DNA of 6,998 nt from a virus (taxonomy: Duplodnaviria; Heunggongvirae; Uroviricota; Caudoviricetes): IMG/VR virus record IMGVR_UViG_2740892443_000001; one strand, given 5' to 3'. Below the pieces are notes generated by a model. It was not told the DNA's origin, did no database searches, and worked only from the letters and a program-made list of their open reading frames with translations. This document shows positions 1 to 6,998 of the stretch, one piece after another (the stretch's first letter is position 1; the number at the start of each line of letters is the position of its first letter). The translations under genes were made by a program, and so were the position numbers.

Positions 1-1164
1 TTACGCCTTCTTTATATCCTCCATAATTCCAGAGTGGGACATATTTGGGACATTATCACCAAAAATGTCGTCTATTTTCCTCGCATGCTCTGTCAAATGA
101 TTAGGCGCAAGGTGAGCATACCTACGAACCATTTCTATGGACTCCCATCCGCCCATTTCCTGAAGCACTGATAATGGGACGCCTGACTGAATCAGCCAGC
201 TTGCCCAGGTGTGTCTGAGGTCATGGAAACGGAAATCTTCAATTCCTGCACGACGACAAGCTGATAGCCATGATGTCTTGCTGTCGATGCGCATCTTCCT
301 GACCGCAGGCGTTGATGTTCCATCTGCTCGCTTAGCCGCCTTGGTATGTACAAACACCCATTTGTGATGCTTGCCTATTTGATCACGCAACACTTTACAG
401 GCGGTATCGTTCAGCGCCACACCAATGGCGCGGTTTGATTTGCTCTCTTCTGGATTCACCCAGGCAACTCGTCGCTGCATGTCGATTTGTTGCCATTCCA
501 GATTTATGATGTTCGACTTTCTCAGACCAGTTGCCAGCGCAAACTTGACGACAGATTTCAGTGGTTCGGGGCACTCATCAATAAGGCGTTTTGCTTCCTC
601 CTTTTCCAGCCATCTGACTCGCTTGTTTCTGACCGCTGGTATCTTGATGACAGGCGCTTTTTCCAGCCACTTCCAGTCGCGTTCTGCAGCACGGAGAATG
701 GCCTTTATCATGGCAAGATGCTTTGCCTTTGTCTGAGTTGATACTGGCTTTGGTTCATAAACAGGCGGTTCTTTACCTTTCCTGATGGCGGCCTGAACTT
801 TCTGTTTCCATATTTCTTTCGTCTTTCTGTTATGCATTCTGCTTACAGCAGAGTAAATCTTTGCCTCCGAGATATCTTTAAGCCTTATACCCTCAAAATG
901 TTCAAGCCAGAACTCAATCCGGCTTTTATCTGAATCGAGAGATTTTTTATCAGCTTTTTCCTCAAGCCATCTTAGGCAGGCCTCTTCAAAAGTGACATCA
1001 GGTAAATCCCCTAGCTTTTCTACTCGCCAGAGTTCTGCTTTTCGCTTGTCGTGCAACTCCTGAGCTTGCCGCTTGTCCTTTGTGCCAAGAGATTCCTTAA
1101 TTCGTTTCCCGCCCGGGAGCGAATACGAGGCATACCATATTTCATTTCTGCGGAAGAGTGACAT
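1..1164 (-). CDS. int: Tyrosine-type phage integrase (lambdoid, e14/Rac-like family)
   Basis: 387-codon ORF on the minus strand, ATG at 1164-1162 and TAA at 3-1. An SD-like GAGG lies 7 nt upstream of the ATG (minus-strand sequence TAACAGAGGAAAGAAA-ATG). The translation carries the C-terminal tyrosine-recombinase signature: [10 protein letters not shown] (HxxR box) and VRRYAHL (catalytic Tyr). Overall sequence matches my recollection of E. coli e14 IntE / Rac IntR-type integrases and is unlike lambda Int; not database-verified. Confidence 0.9.
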
Positions 1165-1391
1165 TTTCTTTCCTCTGTTATGCCATCACCCGCGCTCACC
1201 TGGACAGTATGCAGCGGAGACTGAAGCGCCGCAATGCAGGCTTGCCGTGTTGTGAGGTAAGGAGATTTTGGCTTGGTTGGATCTTTACGTGTTGCCTGTA
1301 GGCGGCCTGTTCGTATCCAGTTGGTGGCGGTTGGTCTGGATATCTTAAGAAACTGACAGGCCTCATCGAGTGTGAGGCTGTATGATTCCAT
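1020..1391 (-). CDS. xis: Excisionase (Xis/AlpA-type HTH protein)
   Basis: ATG at 1391-1389 is preceded on the minus strand by GAGAGAGG with a 5-nt spacer. The translation [31 protein letters not shown] shows the helix-turn-helix typical of Xis/AlpA excisionases. It lies directly upstream of int in the same orientation. The ORF stays open to TAG at 1022-1020, overlapping the int start by about 145 bp in another frame, so the 3' end is uncertain. The upstream ATG at 1439 was not used because it lacks an RBS and would lie inside the plus-strand head-gene ORF. Confidence 0.6.
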
Positions 1392-1414
1392 GGTTACCTC
1401 TCTCAGGAGGGCGA

Positions 1415-1810
1415 ATGACCAAAGAGACTCAATCAACAACTGTTTCAGCCACTGCTTCGCAGGCTGACGTTACTGACGTGGTGCAAGCGACGGAGGGCGA
1501 AAACGCCAGCGCGGCGCAGCCGGACGTGAACGCGCAGATCACCGCTGCGGTTGCGGCAGAAAACAGCCGCATTATGGGGATCCTCAACTGTGAGGAAGCT
1601 CACGGACGCGAAGAACAGGCACGTGTGCTGGCCGAAACCCCCGGTATGACCGTGGAAACGGCCCGCCGCATTCTGGCAGCTGCACCACAGAGTGCACAGG
1701 CGCGCAGTGACACTGCGCTGGATCGTCTGATGCAGGGGGCACCGGCACCACTGGCTGCAGGTAACCCGGCATCTGATGCCGTTAACGATTTGCTGAACAC
1801 ACCAGTGTAA
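1415..1810 (+). CDS. Nu3: Capsid scaffold Nu3 / C-terminal part of the prohead protease C reading frame (lambda-type)
   Basis: ATG 1415 is preceded by AGGAGG (1405-1410); 131 codons run to TAA at 1808-1810, which ends 9 nt before the D start, the arrangement expected for the nested C/Nu3 frame upstream of D in lambda-type head operons. The product is Ala/Gln/Glu-rich and low in complexity, as scaffolds are. The frame is closed by an in-frame TGA at 1373-1375, so the body of protease C is absent. Whether 1415 is the native Nu3 start or an internal Met cannot be settled from the sequence alone; assignment rests on synteny, not on a recalled sequence match. Confidence 0.6.
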   Translation: MTKETQSTTVSATASQADVTDVVQATEGENASAAQPDVNAQITAAVAAENSRIMGILNCEEAHGREEQARVLAETPGMTVETARRILAAAPQSAQARSDTALDRLMQGAPAPLAAGNPASDAVNDLLNTPV

Positions 1811-1819
1811 GGGATGTTT

Positions 1820-2152
1820 ATGACGAGCAAAGAAACCTTTACCCATTACCAGCCGCTGGGCAACAGTGACCCGGCACATACGGCAACCGCGCCCGGCGGA
1901 TTGAGTGCGAAAGCGCCTGCAATGACCCCGCTGATGCTGGACACCTCCACCCGTAAGCTGGTTGCGTGGGATGGCACCACCGACGGTACTGCCGTTGGCA
2001 TTCTGGCGGTTGATGCTGACCAGACCAGCACCACGCTGACGTTCTACAAGTCCGGCACGTTCCGTTATGAGGATGTGCTCTGGCCGGAGGCTGCCAGCGA
2101 CGAGACGAAAAAACGGACCGCGTTTGCCGGAACGGCAATCAGCATCGTTTAA
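1820..2152 (+). CDS. D: Head decoration protein (lambda gpD-like)
   Basis: 110-codon ORF with SD AGGGA (1810-1814) 5 nt upstream of ATG 1820 and TAA at 2150-2152. The translation [43 protein letters not shown]...[36 protein letters not shown] is near-identical to lambda gpD as I recall it. The in-frame ATG at 1814 was rejected because its spacing to the SD is poor. Confidence 0.92.
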
Positions 2153-2170
2153 CCTTACCCTTCATCACTA

Positions 2171-2194
2171 AAGGCCGCCTGTGCGGCTTTTTTT
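2171..2194 (+). terminator. Terminator-like GC hairpin plus T7 run in the D-E intergenic spacer (possible attenuator)
   Basis: Seen directly: GCCGC (2174-2178), loop CTGT, GCGGC (2183-2187), extendable by G-U and A-U pairs at 2171-2173 / 2188-2190, followed by seven T (2188-2194). A second T7 run (2201-2207) lies immediately before the E start codon. Function is not established. Confidence 0.35.
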
Positions 2195-2207
2195 ACGGGA
2201 TTTTTTT

Positions 2208-3083
2208 ATGTCGATGTACACAACCGCCCAGCTGCTGGCGGCAAATGAGCAGAAATTTAAGTTTGATCCGCTGTTTCTGCGTCTCTTTTTCCGTGAGAGC
2301 TATCCCTTTACCACGGAGAAAGTCTATCTCTCACAAATTCCGGGACTGGTAAACATGGCGCTGTACGTTTCGCCGATTGTTTCCGGTGAGGTTATCCGTT
2401 CCCGTGGCGGCTCCACCTCTGAATTTACGCCGGGATATGTCAAACCCAAGCATGAGGTGAATCCGCAGATGACCCTGCGTCGCCTGCCGGATGAAGATCC
2501 GCAGAATCTGGCGGACCCGGCTTACCGCCGCCGTCGCATCATCATGCAGAACATGCGAGACGAAGAGCTGGCCATTGCTCAGGTCGAAGAGATGCAGGCA
2601 GTTTCTGCTGTGCTTAAGGGCAAATACACCATGACCGGTGAAGCCTTCGATCCGGTTGAGGTGGATATGGGCCGCAGTGCGGCGAACAACATCACACAGT
2701 CCGGTGGTACGGAGTGGAGCAAGCGTGACAAGTCCACGTATGACCCGACCGACGATATCGAAGCCTATGCGCTGAACGCCAGCGGCGTGGTGAATATCAT
2801 CGTGTTTGATCCGAAAGGCTGGGCGCTGTTCCGTTCCTTCAAAGCCGTCAAGGAGAAGCTGGATACCCGTCGCGGCTCTCATTCCGAGCTGGAGACAGCG
2901 GTAAAAGACCTGGGCGAAGCGGTGTCCTATAAGGGGATGTATGGCGATACGGCGATCGTCGTGTATTCCGGACAGTACGTGGAAAACGACGTCAAAAAGA
3001 ACTTCCTGCCGGACAACACGATGGTGCTGGGGAACACTCAGGCACGCGGTCTGCGCACCTATCCGGCAGGAAACACTGAATGA
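2208..3083 (+). CDS. E: Major capsid protein (lambda gpE-like), C-terminally truncated at a deletion junction; probably non-functional
   Basis: ATG at 2208 begins MSMYTTAQLLAANEQKFKFDPLFLRLFFRESYPF..., which matches lambda gpE through ...[10 protein letters not shown] (codon 285). The ORF then reads PAGNTE and stops (TGA 3081-3083), giving 291 aa against 341 aa for lambda gpE as I recall it. The GTG at 2181 listed in the ORF track is not the start. The D-to-E spacer of 55 nt matches the lambda arrangement I remember. Confidence 0.85.
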   Translation: MSMYTTAQLLAANEQKFKFDPLFLRLFFRESYPFTTEKVYLSQIPGLVNMALYVSPIVSGEVIRSRGGSTSEFTPGYVKPKHEVNPQMTLRRLPDEDPQNLADPAYRRRRIIMQNMRDEELAIAQVEEMQAVSAVLKGKYTMTGEAFDPVEVDMGRSAANNITQSGGTEWSKRDKSTYDPTDDIEAYALNASGVVNIIVFDPKGWALFRSFKAVKEKLDTRRGSHSELETAVKDLGEAVSYKGMYGDTAIVVYSGQYVENDVKKNFLPDNTMVLGNTQARGLRTYPAGNTE

Positions 3084-3750
3084 ATGCACCCGTGCGGAGC
3101 AGTCGGCCAGCGTGGTGCTCTGGGAAATCGACCTGACAGAGGTCGGTGGAGAACGTTATTTTTTCTGTAATGAGCAGAACGAAAAAGGTGAGCCGGTCAC
3201 CTGGCAGGGGCGACAGTATCAGCCGTATCCCATTCAGGGGAGCGGTTTTGAACTGAATGGCAAAGGCACCAGTACGCGCCCCACGCTGACGGTTTCTAAC
3301 CTGTACGGTATGGTCACCGGGATGGCGGAAGATATGCAGAGTCTGGTCGGCGGAACGGTGGTCCGGCGTAAGGTTTACGCCCGTTTTCTGGATGCGGTGA
3401 ACTTCGTCAACGGAAACAGTGACGCCGATCCGGAGCAGGAGGTGATCAGCCGCTGGCGCATCGAGCAGTGCAGCGAACTGAGCGCGGTCAGTGCCTCTTT
3501 TGTACTGTCCACGCCGACGGAAACGGACGGTGCCGTTTTTCCGGGACGTATCATGCTGGCCAACACCTGCACCTGGACCTATCGCGGTGATGAGTGCGGT
3601 TATAGCGGTCCGGCGGTCGCGGATGAATATGATCAGCCGACGTCCGATATCACGAAGGATAAATGCAGCAAATGCCTGAGCGGCTGTAAGTTTCGCAATA
3701 ACGTCGGCAACTTTGGCGGCTTCCTTTCCATTAACAAACTTTCGCAGTGA
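2941..3750 (+). CDS. L: Tail-tip protein L (lambda gpL-like) lacking its native start; ORF opens from an ATG inside E in a different frame (fusion ORF, likely pseudogene-like)
   Basis: From about 3061 the translation [69 protein letters not shown]...[28 protein letters not shown] matches lambda gpL from residue 4 to its C-terminus, including the Cys cluster; stop TGA at 3748-3750. The native first three codons (MQD) are absent. The only upstream in-frame ATG is 2941, which has an AAGGGG 4 nt upstream and adds about 40 non-native residues translated from the E gene in an alternative frame. Confidence 0.6.
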
Positions 3751-5735
3751 ATCCCATGACAGAGACAGAATCAGCGATTCTGGCGCACGCCCGGCGATGT
3801 GCGCCAGCGGAGTCGTGCGGCTTCGTGGTGAGAACACCGGAGGGGGAAAGATATTTTCCCTGCGTGAATAAGGGACGCTTCCTGAACAACATTAACGCGG
3901 TCAGTAAAACAGACTTTGCTGATAAGCGTGGTATGCGTTATGTGCGGGTTAACGCTCCTGCAGGTGCAACATCTGGAAAATATTACCCTGTTGTTGTTAT
4001 GCGTTCTGCTGGCTCAGTAAGCGAACTGGCATCAAGGGTCATTATCACCACGGCAACGCGAACCGCAGGCGATCCGATGAATAACTGCGAGTTTAACGGA
4101 TTTGTTATGCCTGGTGGCTGGACTGACAGGGGGCGTTATGCTTATGGAATGTTCTGGCAATATCAAAACAATGAACGAGCCATCCACTCAATAATGATGA
4201 GTAATAAGGGCGATGATTTGCGCTCTGTGTTCTATGTTGATGGCGCTGCTTTCCCTGTTTTTGCGTTTATCGAAGATGGCCTGTCAATATCCGCACCTGG
4301 TGCTGATCTCGTTGTTAATGATACGACCTATAAGTTTGGGGCAACAAATCCGGCGACTGAATGTATCGCGGCGGACGTTATCCTTGATTTTAAGAGTGGG
4401 CGTGGTTTTTATGAGTCTCATTCGTTAATCGTTAACGATAACTTGTCGTGCAAAAAACTTTTTGCCACAGACGAAATTGTAGCGCGTGGTGGTAATCAGA
4501 TTCGAATGATAGGTGGGGAGTATGGGGCATTATGGCGTAATGATGGCGCTAAAACTTACCTGCTGCTTACCAATCAAGGTGATGTTTATGGTGGCTGGAA
4601 TACATTAAGACCGTTTGCTATTGATAACGCAACCGGCGAACTGGTTATTGGAACCAAACTGTCCGCAAGTCTGAACGGTAATGCATTAACAGCAACAAAG
4701 CTGCAAACGCCAAGACGGGTTTCTGGTGTTGAGTTTGATGGTTCCAAAGATATTACTTTAACCGCCGCGCATGTGGCTGCTTTTGCCAGAAGGGCAACGG
4801 ATACATATGCCGATGCGGATGGTGGCGTTCCCTGGAATGCCGAATCAGGCGCTTATAATGTCACCCGCTCTGGCGACAGCTATATTCTGGTTAACTTCTA
4901 TACCGGAGTCGGAAGTTGCCGGACCTTGCAGATGAAGGCGCATTACAGAAATGGTGGTCTGTTCTACCGTTCTTCAAGAGACGGTTATGGTTTTGAGGAT
5001 GACTGGGCAGAAGTTTATACCTCGAAAAATCTTCCACCAGAAAGCTACCCAGTCGGCGCACCAATCCCGTGGCCATCAGATACCGTTCCGTCTGGTTATG
5101 CCCTGATGCAGGGGCAGACTTTTGACAAATCTGCTTACCCGAAACTTGCAGCCGCTTATCCGTCAGGCGTGATCCCTGATATGCGTGGCTGGACGATTAA
5201 GGGCAAACCTGCCAGTGGTCGGGCCGTATTGTCTCAGGAACAGGACGGCATTAAATCGCATACCCACAGCGCCAGCGCATCCAGTACAGATTTGGGGACG
5301 AAAACCACATCGTCGTTTGATTACGGCACTAAATCCACGAATAACACTGGTGCGCATACCCATAGTTTAAGTGGCAGCACGAATGCAGCTGGTAATCACA
5401 GCCATAGAGATGGCCGTCGATTTAACCCCAGTGTTTTTAAAGATACTTATCAATATGGTTATACAAGCTCAGGTCAAAATACCTGGGGTGTACAAGGCTC
5501 AGTAGGTATGTCTACGGGGTGGTTAGCGAATACCAGTACAGATGGTAATCATAGCCATTCACTGTCCGGCACAGCAGCATCTGCAGGTGCACACGCGCAT
5601 ACTGTCGGTATTGGTGCTCATACGCACTCCGTTGCGATTGGTTCACATGGACACACCATCACCGTTAACGCTGCTGGTAACGCGGAAAACACCGTCAAAA
5701 ACATCGCATTTAACTATATTGTGAGGCTTGCATAA
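3747..5735 (+). CDS. stf: Chimeric side tail fibre protein: gpK-like N-terminal ~40 aa fused in-frame to a tail-fibre shaft and a lambda Stf-like C-terminal tip
   Basis: One uninterrupted ORF, with GTG at 3747 overlapping the L stop (GTGA) and the first ATG at 3756; stop TAA at 5733-5735. The N-terminus [25 protein letters not shown]... fits the MPN/JAB-type start of lambda tail protein K. The middle part (about 3870-5050) is AT-richer and contains a fibre-type motif ([27 protein letters not shown]). The C-terminus from [48 protein letters not shown] through the HxH repeats to ...[18 protein letters not shown] matches the lambda Stf C-terminal region as I recall it. Confidence 0.8.
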
Positions 5736-6310
5736 TGGCATTCAGAATGAGTGAACAACCACGGACCATAAAAATTTATAATCTGCTGGCCGGAACTAAT
5801 GAATTTATTGGTGAAGGTGACGCATATATTCCGCCTCATACAGGTCTGCCAGCAAACAGTACCGATATTGCACCACCAGATATTCCTGCTGGCTTTGTGG
5901 CTGTTTTCAACAGTGATGAGGCATCGTGGCATCTCGTTGAAGATCATCGGGGTAAAACGGTTTATGACGTGGCTTCCGGCGACGCGTTATTTATTTCTGA
6001 ACTCGGTCCGTTACCGAAAAATGTTACCTGGTTATCGCCGGAAGGGGAGTTTCAGAAGTGGAACGGCACAGCCTGGGTGAAGGATACGGAAGCAGAAAAA
6101 CTGTTCCGGATCCGGGAGGCGGAAGAAACAAAAAACAACCTGATGCAGGTAGCCAGTGAGCATATTGCGCCGCTTCAGGATGCTGCAGATCTGGAAATTG
6201 CAACGGAGGAAGAAATCTCGTTGCTGGAAGCATGGAAAAAGTATCGGGTATTGCTGAACCGTGTTGATACGTCAACTGCACAGGATATTGAATGGCCAGC
6301 ACTGCCGTAG
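5735..6310 (+). CDS. tfa: Tail fibre assembly chaperone (lambda Tfa-like)
   Basis: ATG at 5735-5737 overlaps the stf stop (TAATG), implying translational coupling. The translation [93 protein letters not shown]... matches lambda Tfa as I recall it; stop TAG at 6308-6310. The extreme C-terminus may differ slightly from lambda. Confidence 0.9.
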
Positions 6311-6407
6311 GGTAAAACATATAAATTCTATAATTAGATGTATCTTTCCATTTACGGCAAGGAAGGGGGCTTGGAAGACGTAAAGCATCTCACACCGAGA
6401 TTATTTT

Positions 6408-6998
6408 TTATATGTCAGGTGTCTGAAGTTTTGCTTTGGCTCTTAAAATGGTTTGCCGCGAGGTTTTGAATTCCCGGGCAATGGCACTTATACTTACACC
6501 TGACTTAATTCGTTCGAATACCGCCTGTTTCTGTTCTTCATTTAACACAGGTGGTCGACCAAAACGTTTCCCTGCGCCGCGGGCTCTTACTATCCCGGAA
6601 TGAGTGCGTTCAAGTAAAAGGTCTCGTTCAAATTCAGCGACTGCTGAAATTACTTGCATCATCATTTTTCCTGTTGGACTGGTCAGGTCAATGCCCCCCA
6701 ATGCTAAGCAATGCACTCTGATACCTGTTTCGGTCAGTTGTTCCACTGTTTTCCTGATATCCATTGCATTACAACCAAGGCGATCCAGTTTTGTCACAAT
6801 CAATTGATCACCACATTTCAGGCGAGCAAGCAACCGGTTAAAACCAGGACGCTCACTGGTTGCTGCTGAGCCGCTAATGTGTTCTTCGATTATTTGCTGA
6901 GGTTTGATTTTAAAACCTGCACTTTCGATTTCCCGGCGTTGATTTTCGGTGGTCTGATCCAGCGTTGATATCCGACAGTAAGCAAAAATTTGAGACAT
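6408..6998 (-). CDS. Small serine recombinase (resolvase/invertase family) with C-terminal HTH
   Basis: 196-codon minus-strand ORF with its ATG exactly at 6998-6996 (window edge) and TAA at 6410-6408. The translation shows serine-recombinase hallmarks: N-terminal YCRISTLDQ (catalytic Ser), [46 protein letters not shown], and a C-terminal HTH ([18 protein letters not shown]). It is clearly diverged from the Hin/Gin/Pin/Cin invertase cluster and is not PinE/PinR-like from memory. Confidence 0.85.

Follow-up and report, generated by a model that had tools for sequence, protein, structure and literature searches.

DLP12 of Escherichia coli K-12 is a defective lambdoid prophage remnant that has been shaped by internal deletions, and its organisation is known (PMC6379469). 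It occupies the tRNA-Arg gene argU and is bounded by an att duplication of about 50 nt. The K-12 copy has kept Q, nmpC, and the lysis and bor genes through nohD, has lost the stretch from nohD to tfaD, carries IS3 and IS5, and has a 5'-truncated xisD. A second set of relatives consists of the PS10-3 prophage (NZ_CP096837.1), PhiR34_1 and phiSTEC1575-Stx2k, which are about 45 kb long and have full head, tail, lysis and regulatory modules.

The window, i.e., the whole stretch of 6998 bp that was analysed, is with a probability of about 0.9 the left 7 kb of a 12.1-kb lambdoid prophage remnant of the DLP12 family, integrated at argU in one E. coli lineage (EC596 and its relatives). It matches the E. 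coli EC596 chromosome at 100% identity, where it is placed between argU and appY–ompT–envY; the end of argU lies 15 nt before base 1, just outside the window. Integration is at the 3' end of the tRNA gene with a direct repeat on the far side: both attL and attR are present as 50-nt direct repeats that are 49/50 identical (L001, 7938–7987 and 19996–20045) and match the known DLP12 organisation. An IntD of 387 aa stands beside argU, and the DLP12-type right arm (ybcY, tfaX, appY and ompT, with attR) is also there, intD being 99.8% and the right arm (EC596 16055–20942) 99.3% identical to K-12 DLP12. The gene content and order are lambdoid, with Nu3–D–E'–L–K'–stf–tfa colinear with lambda-like phages and with the PS10-3 prophage. 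In contrast to K-12 DLP12, this element no longer has the early, lysis and packaging genes; what it retains is Nu3, D, E', L, K'-'stf, tfa, pin, ydfK and a full-length xis.

The packaging, head, tail, lysis and immunity modules of a functional temperate lambdoid phage are not complete. The 12.1-kb element is devoid of terminase, portal, the body of the C protease, FI through M, I, J, the lysis genes, cI/cro and Q, and within the window the sequence-only reading had rightly listed terminase, portal, tail tube, tape measure, J, lysis and immunity genes as missing. Virion formation and cell lysis are impossible for this remnant. Excision may be conceivable, since int and the 123-aa xis are full length and both att repeats have been kept, which is compatible with the excision-competent int–xis cassette suggested in the sequence-only reading. 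The object is thus of a known kind, an ordinary dead prophage remnant, with the exception of the stf end of one of its junctions (J3; see below). The features of the window are as follows.

1–1164, minus strand: intD, tyrosine integrase, 387 aa, full length (Pfam Phage_integrase, E = 5.5e-47)
1020–1391, minus strand: xis, excisionase-like HTH_17 protein, 123 aa, full length, overlapping int by 145 nt
1399–1401, no strand: junction J1, 3-bp microhomology TCT; 1612-bp deletion relative to an ECL27977-type precursor
1415–1810, plus strand: Nu3-type scaffold ORF, 131 aa, the in-frame 3' part of the S49 protease gene C, with its own GGAGGG ribosome-binding site
1820–2152, plus strand: D, head decoration protein, 110 aa, intact (Pfam HDPD, E = 1.6e-22)
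2208–3083, plus strand: E', truncated major capsid gene, 285 of 341 codons plus a 6-codon out-of-frame tail, PAGNTE* (Pfam Phage_cap_E)
3060–3062, no strand: junction J2, 3-bp microhomology TAT; 6465-bp deletion from E codon 286 to the 9th base of L
3061–3750, plus strand: L, minor tail protein, 229 of 232 codons (Pfam Phage_tail_L, full profile, E = 2.2e-101)
3756–5735, plus strand: K'-'stf chimera, 659 aa in total, K codons 1–38 (3756–3870) in frame with Stf codons 512–1132 (621 aa)
3868–3870, no strand: junction J3, 3-bp microhomology ATA; 7023-bp deletion from K codon 39 to stf nucleotide 1534
5735–6310, plus strand: tfa, tail fibre assembly protein, 191 aa, intact (Pfam Caudo_TAP, E = 6.8e-43)
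6408–6998, minus strand: pin, Hin/Gin-type serine DNA invertase, 196 aa, intact (Pfam Resolvase and HTH_7)

The intD gene, whose start is 15 nt away from argU, shares 99.76% DNA identity with its K-12 counterpart, with two amino acid differences between the products, and is annotated as WP_000051902.1 in EC596, in NT1N25 and in the complete PS10-3 prophage. The neighbouring xis carries a partial flag in the PGAP annotation, and its status as a pseudogene was considered and rejected: homologues in Salmonella, Citrobacter, Serratia, Pantoea, Yersinia and Xenorhabdus have the family length of 115–123 aa (94–100% coverage, 60–85% identity), and one of them, in a Serratia phage, is named excisionase. 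The flag is an annotation quirk, as the complete PS10-3 prophage is flagged likewise. The first 44 codons of this xis are missing from K-12 xisD.

What had been taken for a protease remnant next to xis corresponds exactly to the nested 131-aa Nu3 scaffold ORF, which has a Shine-Dalgarno sequence of its own. The region is 99.88% identical to C/Nu3 of phiSTEC1575-Stx2k and PS10-3; Nu3 is annotated in phage PhiR30_1, and the 131-aa gene is called in the draft assemblies L012–L015. D (WP_001358225.1) is identical in EC596, ECL27977, PS10-3 and 19KM2326N. E' covers positions 1–276 of the 329 of the Phage_cap_E profile; homology to E stops at 3062, and the last 56 aa are lost. L had likewise been described as a remnant, but the gene is nearly whole; its ATG and ribosome-binding site are lost, the PGAP start is an ATC, and the frame differs from that of E'. 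K' has kept its own ribosome-binding site, and the K'-'Stf product contains the Pfam domains Gp34_trimer, Collar and gp37_C.

All three junctions fall within the intervals predicted from the letters (1350–1450, 3040–3080 and 3850–3900). Their proposed preservation, or near preservation, of reading frames applies to J3 only. J2 is out of frame (E in phase 0, L in phase 1), and J1 lies between xis and Nu3, whose starts diverge, which makes the reading frame irrelevant there; one in-frame fusion among the junctions is the chance expectation. FI, FII, Z, U, V, G, T, H and M were lost at J2, and I, J, lom and the 5' half of stf at J3. J1 took rzpD, iss/bor and a DUF4222 remnant, and shortened the 855-nt 3' remnant of the precursor's C protease gene by 441 nt to its last 414 nt. 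The junctions are all real, as proposed, but are not three independent primary events: J1 is a secondary deletion, within which two older junctions disappeared along with rzpD and iss.

The window is colinear with the PS10-3 prophage, PhiR34_1 and phiSTEC1575-Stx2k at 98.3–100% identity. The PS10-3 prophage is a complete 45.6-kb relative at the same site, and its IntD, D, Tfa, Pin, YdfK and methyltransferase proteins are identical to those of the element; the window aligns with it in four colinear blocks, and 20.4, 6.5 and 7.0 kb of the stretch that the window covers are missing. The segments differ from functional phages and prophages at 3/1391, 2/1664, 2/811 and 0/3131 bases (99.8–100% identity). 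These data, together with argU, the two att repeats and a surviving intermediate, indicate that the prophage has very probably decayed recently, as the sequence-only reading had suggested.

The history very probably started from a prophage of about 45 kb, of the type that is still complete at argU in PS10-3, in which five or more deletions followed one another, presumably independent of RecA and joined at microhomologies of 2–3 bp. One removed the early region from upstream of xis to rzpD, and another the stretch from upstream of bor/iss into gene C; the E-to-L deletion produced J2 and the K-to-stf deletion J3. These four steps could have occurred in any order, and J1 came last, swallowing both older junctions. 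The molecular mechanism was presumably replication slippage or microhomology-mediated end joining. The state after the first four steps is still found in the sheep isolates ECL27977 and ECL27829. ECL27977 has a derived SNP in int, and is therefore a structural rather than a literal ancestor.

Sister forms occupy the same locus. Variant A (ECL27977/ECL27829) and variant C (NT1N25-type) share with the EC596 element the sfmD frameshift, identical flanking proteins and the same xis end, and both are 100% identical to it from stf onward; an nfrA'-'tssI joint is present in EC596 and variant A, and lies beyond the stretch that was fetched for variant C. Unlike the window, variant A has retained rzpD, iss and 855 nt of C. 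In variant C, IS2 is inserted in rzpD, Nu3 through K' are absent, and the iss-upstream sequence is joined directly to the same stf base. The complete form, the intermediate and two further-reduced forms thus coexist in closely related strains, with 2–3 bp of microhomology at every joint, which makes the locus a clean, dated example of rapid lambdoid prophage reduction. It is a useful illustration and leaves views of prophage decay unchanged.

The stf end of J3 stands apart as a base-precise, recurrent breakpoint. In other genomes and contigs, including unrelated strains, at least eight different left partners meet this base (K, the iss-upstream region, Z, J, Nu1, a ClpP-type protease gene, a chaperone-like ORF and Q), and in one contig it has a right partner, a GIY-YIG gene. 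The breakpoint lies at stf codon 511/512 and reads ...CCCGATA followed, across the break, by AGGGACGCTTCCTGAAC...; the TA is kept in all the recurrent stf joints. Reuse of the stf end with other partners suggests that J3, at least, is not a random illegitimate event and that a site-specific factor may play a part in it.

Deletions of which one end is fixed and the partner variable are familiar from phage lambda as the Int-promoted 'b' deletions. IEE-dependent IS excision also yields one-sided deletions that are repaired at microhomologies (PMC9943667). Both resemble the stf breakpoint, and only this part of the element, in their base-fixed end, variable partner and short overlaps. Together with the number of partners on a single base and the constant TA, the precedent of IEE favours the explanation that J3, at least, was made by a site-specific activity, either a staggered cut by an endonuclease or recombinase at the stf TA or the excision of an IS followed by microhomology end joining. 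We regard this explanation as possible but doubtful. Unlike in the lambda and IEE cases, neither an att-like or invertase-like site nor an IS was found at the stf site. In addition, the J–stf joint shares 8–9 nt of homology, which could alone explain that event.

Particular agents were considered in turn. Pin is rejected as the maker of J3: a search for hix/gix-like sites found none in the window (up to 3 mismatches) or in the PS10-3 prophage (up to 7 mismatches to hixL or gix), and pin is missing from some of the loci that carry the same stf joint. The sequence to the right of J3 has neither an inverted nor a direct partner. Hairpin-driven slippage at stf is also rejected, as native stf has no significant hairpin and folds no better than shuffled sequence (z = 0.27). 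On the K side of J3, two small hairpins are seen. A former IS at the stf site is found in none of the 60 best complete genomes and none of 175 metagenomic or viral contigs. The IS2 and IS1203 copies of sister strains are placed elsewhere. A GIY-YIG homing endonuclease encoded beside tfa has no support as the cause despite the stf–GIY-YIG joint of one contig, since the linked stf alleles retain the canonical site. The nohA–stfQ joint of the K-12 Qin prophage is at a different position and is not the same joint. As for Chi-directed end protection, no Chi was noted in the first approximately 140 nt to the right of J3 in an unsystematic inspection by eye.

Tentatively, then, stf codon 511/512 could be a site of sequence-specific breakage or recombination in lambdoid side-tail-fibre genes, although we consider this unlikely on balance. 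The activity that would cut or stall there may be an endonuclease, of the homing type or otherwise site-specific, that leaves TA as a 2-nt overhang; a fork-pausing element; or a recombinase that uses secondary sites. If this were true, repeated one-sided deletions would strip prophages of morphogenesis genes, and their 'grounding' would be partly programmed rather than random; a specific activity at stf would provide a defined mechanism for both prophage inactivation and the exchange of tail-fibre modules.

Much less probable, and in our view very improbable, is that the remnant is a domesticated or satellite-like element under selection, either exploiting a helper phage through int-xis and the scaffold, decoration, L and fibre genes or keeping the K'-'Stf/Tfa/Pin module in the service of the host. 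Analysis of the nine ORFs and their frames bears out the claim that no surviving ORF contains an internal stop, and these open frames, the ribosome-binding sites of Nu3 and K', the intact int, xis and att sites and the occurrence of the element in many assemblies would all fit selection. However, the copies are essentially identical to one another and to live phages, which means that since these recent deletions there has been hardly any time for point mutations to build up, and the open frames are therefore not evidence of selection; the number of intact ORFs is no higher than expected by chance. In a remnant that just a few mutations separate from a live phage, open frames say nothing on function. 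Furthermore, E is truncated and L has no start codon; a cos/pac site, terminase and the replication and regulatory module are all absent, as are a late promoter and the Q gene; and the C–K' block has been lost wholly in sister lineages (variant C). A phage satellite of the PICI, cf-PICI or P4-like type is rejected, as there is no regulation or replication module of its own, no packaging signal and no capsid-redirecting gene; rather than forming a conserved, diverged family, the copies all come from a known precursor and show about 100% identity.

Assembly chimeras or an engineered construct, between which and recent decay the sequence-only reading had not chosen, have practically no probability left, even though J1 occurs in just 1 of 5426 complete genomes and mis-joins classically arise from prophage repeats: EC596 and three further NCBI assemblies carry the whole window colinearly at 100% identity, a fourth differs from it by one base, and the IMG/VR contig L111 is colinear with it over the 6310 bp that were compared. 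All three junctions are thus carried by independent assemblies (L012–L015 and L111), as a search for them in other genomes, proposed at the outset, has shown, and J2 and J3 are each found in five records (three strains) among the 5426 complete genomes, including the closed genomes of the two sheep isolates, which are Canadian. In a public assembly collection, 143 blocks list the K'-'Stf fusion protein in exactly this form. The 3 bp shared at the joints are too short for a k-mer mis-join, vector or marker sequence is absent, and the chromosomal flanks around the EC596 element are native. The comparison of assemblies establishes that the three junctions are genuine and excludes an artefact of assembly or construction.

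A few further features concern the right part of the window and its coding content. A PADLOC scan of the nine ORFs gave no match to a defence system, in agreement with the earlier impression that no novel system of this kind is present. The invertase Pin (WP_000078177.1), which is identical across many prophages, belongs to the Hin/Gin family that drives invertible tail-fibre switches of the Mu G, P1 C and e14 P type. An inverted pair of 26-bp crossover sites flanking fibre/tfa cassettes is absent, as the window contains no inverted-repeat pair and no hix/gix-like match with up to 3 mismatches. Sequence of tfa recurs in just one other fragment, which is in direct orientation. The sole match in an Rfam scan is IS009 (RF02111), at 6078–6276 inside tfa, with 220.9 bits.

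The element is genuine, a recent and unremarkable DLP12-type prophage remnant, which bears out the recent prophage decay proposed in the sequence-only reading. The whole window matches the E. coli EC596 chromosome (NZ_CP156718.1) at 100% in a single piece, with window base 1 lying 15 nt past the tRNA-Arg gene argU. The gene order in EC596 is argU and intD through to the pin-type invertase gene, then ydfK, ynaM, a SAM methyltransferase gene, a tfa fragment, appY, ompT and envY. The argU 3' end is repeated directly between ompT and envY (50 nt, 49/50 identical); the element is therefore 12.1 kb, of which the window is the left 7 kb. Its site and organization are those of DLP12 (PMC6379469). The K-12 DLP12 int is 99.76% identical to the window int (2 aa differences) and the right arms are 99.3% identical, whereas the interior of K-12 DLP12 is completely unlike that of the element.

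Genes of the window, assigned by Pfam and ORF analysis
1-1164, minus strand: int, 387 aa, intact
1020-1391, minus strand: xis (HTH_17), 123 aa, full length
1415-1810: Nu3-type scaffold ORF, 131 aa
1820-2152: D, 110 aa
2208-3083: E' (truncated E), 285 of 341 codons plus a 6-aa tail
3061-3750: L, 229 of 232 codons, without ATG
3756-5735: K'-'Stf chimera (K start fused to Stf end), 38 + 621 aa
5735-6310: tfa, 191 aa
6408-6998, minus strand: pin, 196 aa

In strain PS10-3 the same site is occupied by a complete prophage of 45.6 kb, whose IntD, D, Tfa, Pin, YdfK and methyltransferase proteins are identical to those of the element. Relative to this prophage, the window consists of four colinear blocks (1-1391, 1399-3062, 3060-3870 and 3868-6998), with three deletion junctions.

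Deletion junctions of the window
J1, 1399-1401: TCT microhomology, 1612 bp deleted
J2, 3060-3062: TAT microhomology, E codon 285 joined to the 9th base of L, 6465 bp deleted
J3, 3868-3870: ATA microhomology, K codon 38 joined to stf nucleotide 1534, 7023 bp deleted

An assembly or construction artefact, which the sequence-only reading had held equally possible, is excluded by independent assemblies, junction overlaps of just 3 bp each and flanks of native chromosome. Three further NCBI draft assemblies contain the full window colinearly at 100% identity, a fourth has it with a 1-base difference, and an IMG/VR contig is colinear with it across the 6310 bp compared. The proposed search for the junctions in other genomes finds J1 in one of 5426 complete genomes, and J2 and J3 in five records that stem from three strains. 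In the public assembly collection, 143 blocks have the exact 659-aa K'-'Stf protein in their index.

The order of events can be partly read from related genomes. The sheep isolates ECL27977 and ECL27829 have J2 and J3, and between xis and Nu3 they hold a DUF4222 remnant, rzpD, iss and 855 nt of C, a stretch that contains two older deletion joints. J1 is best read as a 1612-bp deletion within such a stretch, and at least five deletions are therefore required to reach the present state. Nine sister genomes (NT1N25 and others) derive from the same precursor structure by a different route: IS2 lies in rzpD, and the iss-upstream region is joined straight to stf.

J1 ends 4 nt (1402-1405) ahead of the GGAGGG Shine-Dalgarno sequence of the Nu3 ORF, and thus the complete nested Nu3 gene remains while the protease body is gone; this sparing of Nu3 is probably a coincidence. 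J2 removed the true ATG of L and two more codons; RefSeq gives minor tail protein L (WP_034166819.1) an ATC start at 3061. The xis ORF has a 145-nt overlap with int and is called partial by PGAP (a C-terminally incomplete pseudogene). The same flag is given even within the complete prophage and homologues across Enterobacterales are full-length at 115-123 aa, which rules out a pseudogene and indicates that xis is intact, unlike the K-12 xisD, which is without the first 44 codons.

The earlier view that each junction keeps or nearly keeps a reading frame holds for J3, the only in-frame junction; J2 is out of frame, with loss of the L start codon, and J1 falls between divergent gene starts. Compared with the complete prophage or live phages, the four blocks differ at 3/1391, 2/1664, 2/811 (counted against PhiR34_1) and 0/3131 bases, so few that nonsense and frameshift mutations would not be expected; at this near-zero divergence, open frames are not evidence of selection. 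Packaging, tail, lysis, immunity and late-regulation genes are absent from the element, and hence, as had been claimed, a virion cannot be made. Excision is conceivable, judging from the full-length int and xis and both att repeats. No window ORF matches a PADLOC defence model, in agreement with the earlier statement that the sequence gave no evidence of a novel defence system, and the only Rfam match is a full-length IS009 (RF02111; 6078-6276, 220.9 bits) inside the tfa coding sequence. Structurally, the element is a new variant within a well-known type of prophage remnant; nothing in it points to a novel system, and only the recurrent stf breakpoint merits follow-up.

The breakpoint on the stf side of J3 is non-random. 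The native stf sequence here is CCCGATA/AGGGACGCTTCCTGAAC (slash, breakpoint), and across unrelated genomes and contigs the TA/AGGGACGC position is fused to at least eight different partners on the left and to one on the right.

Left partners joined to the stf breakpoint
K: window lineage
iss-upstream region: nine complete genomes
Z codon 29: complete genomes Z142-3 and OXA-181
J: metagenome contig L054
Nu1 3' end: L151
ClpP-type prohead protease gene: L184
Chaperone-like ORF: L155
5' end of Q: L197

In contig L267, the left side of stf is kept up to the breakpoint base and a GIY-YIG gene follows downstream. TA is kept in every joint, with overlaps of 2-4 nt (8-9 nt for J), and in-frame fusions (three of the eight left partners) are at chance expectation. 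The joint in L031 lies 9 nt upstream of the breakpoint base; other illegitimate joints in this stretch of stf, 228 and 470 nt upstream and 78 nt downstream, have one left partner each. Reuse also extends to the partner sites in Nu1 and K. The breakpoint is at window 3868-3871 (stf codon 511/512), and also occurs in the retrieved sequences L003 (6770-6772), L054, L151, L155, L184, L197, L267, L274 and L275. Reused partner sites in the PS10-3 prophage (L010, reverse complement) are at 21136-21137 (Nu1), 34701-34702 (K) and 38427-38428 (J); in different genomes, the one in Nu1 is linked to stf, to J and to FII. All that strain P13-6 retains of K is a 26-nt hairpin fragment (L273, 3965-3990) that begins at precisely the TA of J3; the stf position to which it is joined lies 78 nt downstream of the recurrent breakpoint.

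A recombinase acting on secondary sites would be a candidate for the breakpoint by analogy only, and IEE-type IS-excision deletions (PMC9943667) likewise serve as an analogy and no more. Tests gave no support to an invertase site, a native hairpin, an IS at the breakpoint or a GIY-YIG-linked immunity polymorphism. A 1173-nt probe that covers the 5' portion of the GIY-YIG gene plus the beginning of the methyltransferase gene is present over at least 80% of its length in 244 complete genomes. The P13-6 prophage remnant at ssrA (L273, 6432-10288) encodes a LEM-3-like GIY-YIG protein, a Dcm-type methyltransferase and a type II restriction endonuclease, as cargo right after tfa.

The pin gene (region considered: window 6311-6998 and 14999-17100 of the EC596 locus, L001) is intact yet orphaned: it lacks a hix/gix-like crossover pair, and the second tfa fragment is in direct orientation. 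The methyltransferase gene of the PS10-3 prophage holds a single AAACCAAGGTTC core. The EC596 genome has a single place matching any part of the window, versus a median of five per genome, and its lineage seems to be without the usual Rac- and Qin-type stf, tfa and pin copies. In the chromosome flanking the element in EC596 and ECL27977 (L001, 2877-5485 and 21924-22812), the sfmD usher gene is frameshifted and nfrA is truncated and joined to a tssI/vgrG fragment. NT1N25 shares the sfmD frameshift, the stretch compared stopping short of the nfrA'-'tssI joint; both features are handy lineage markers for these prophage variants.
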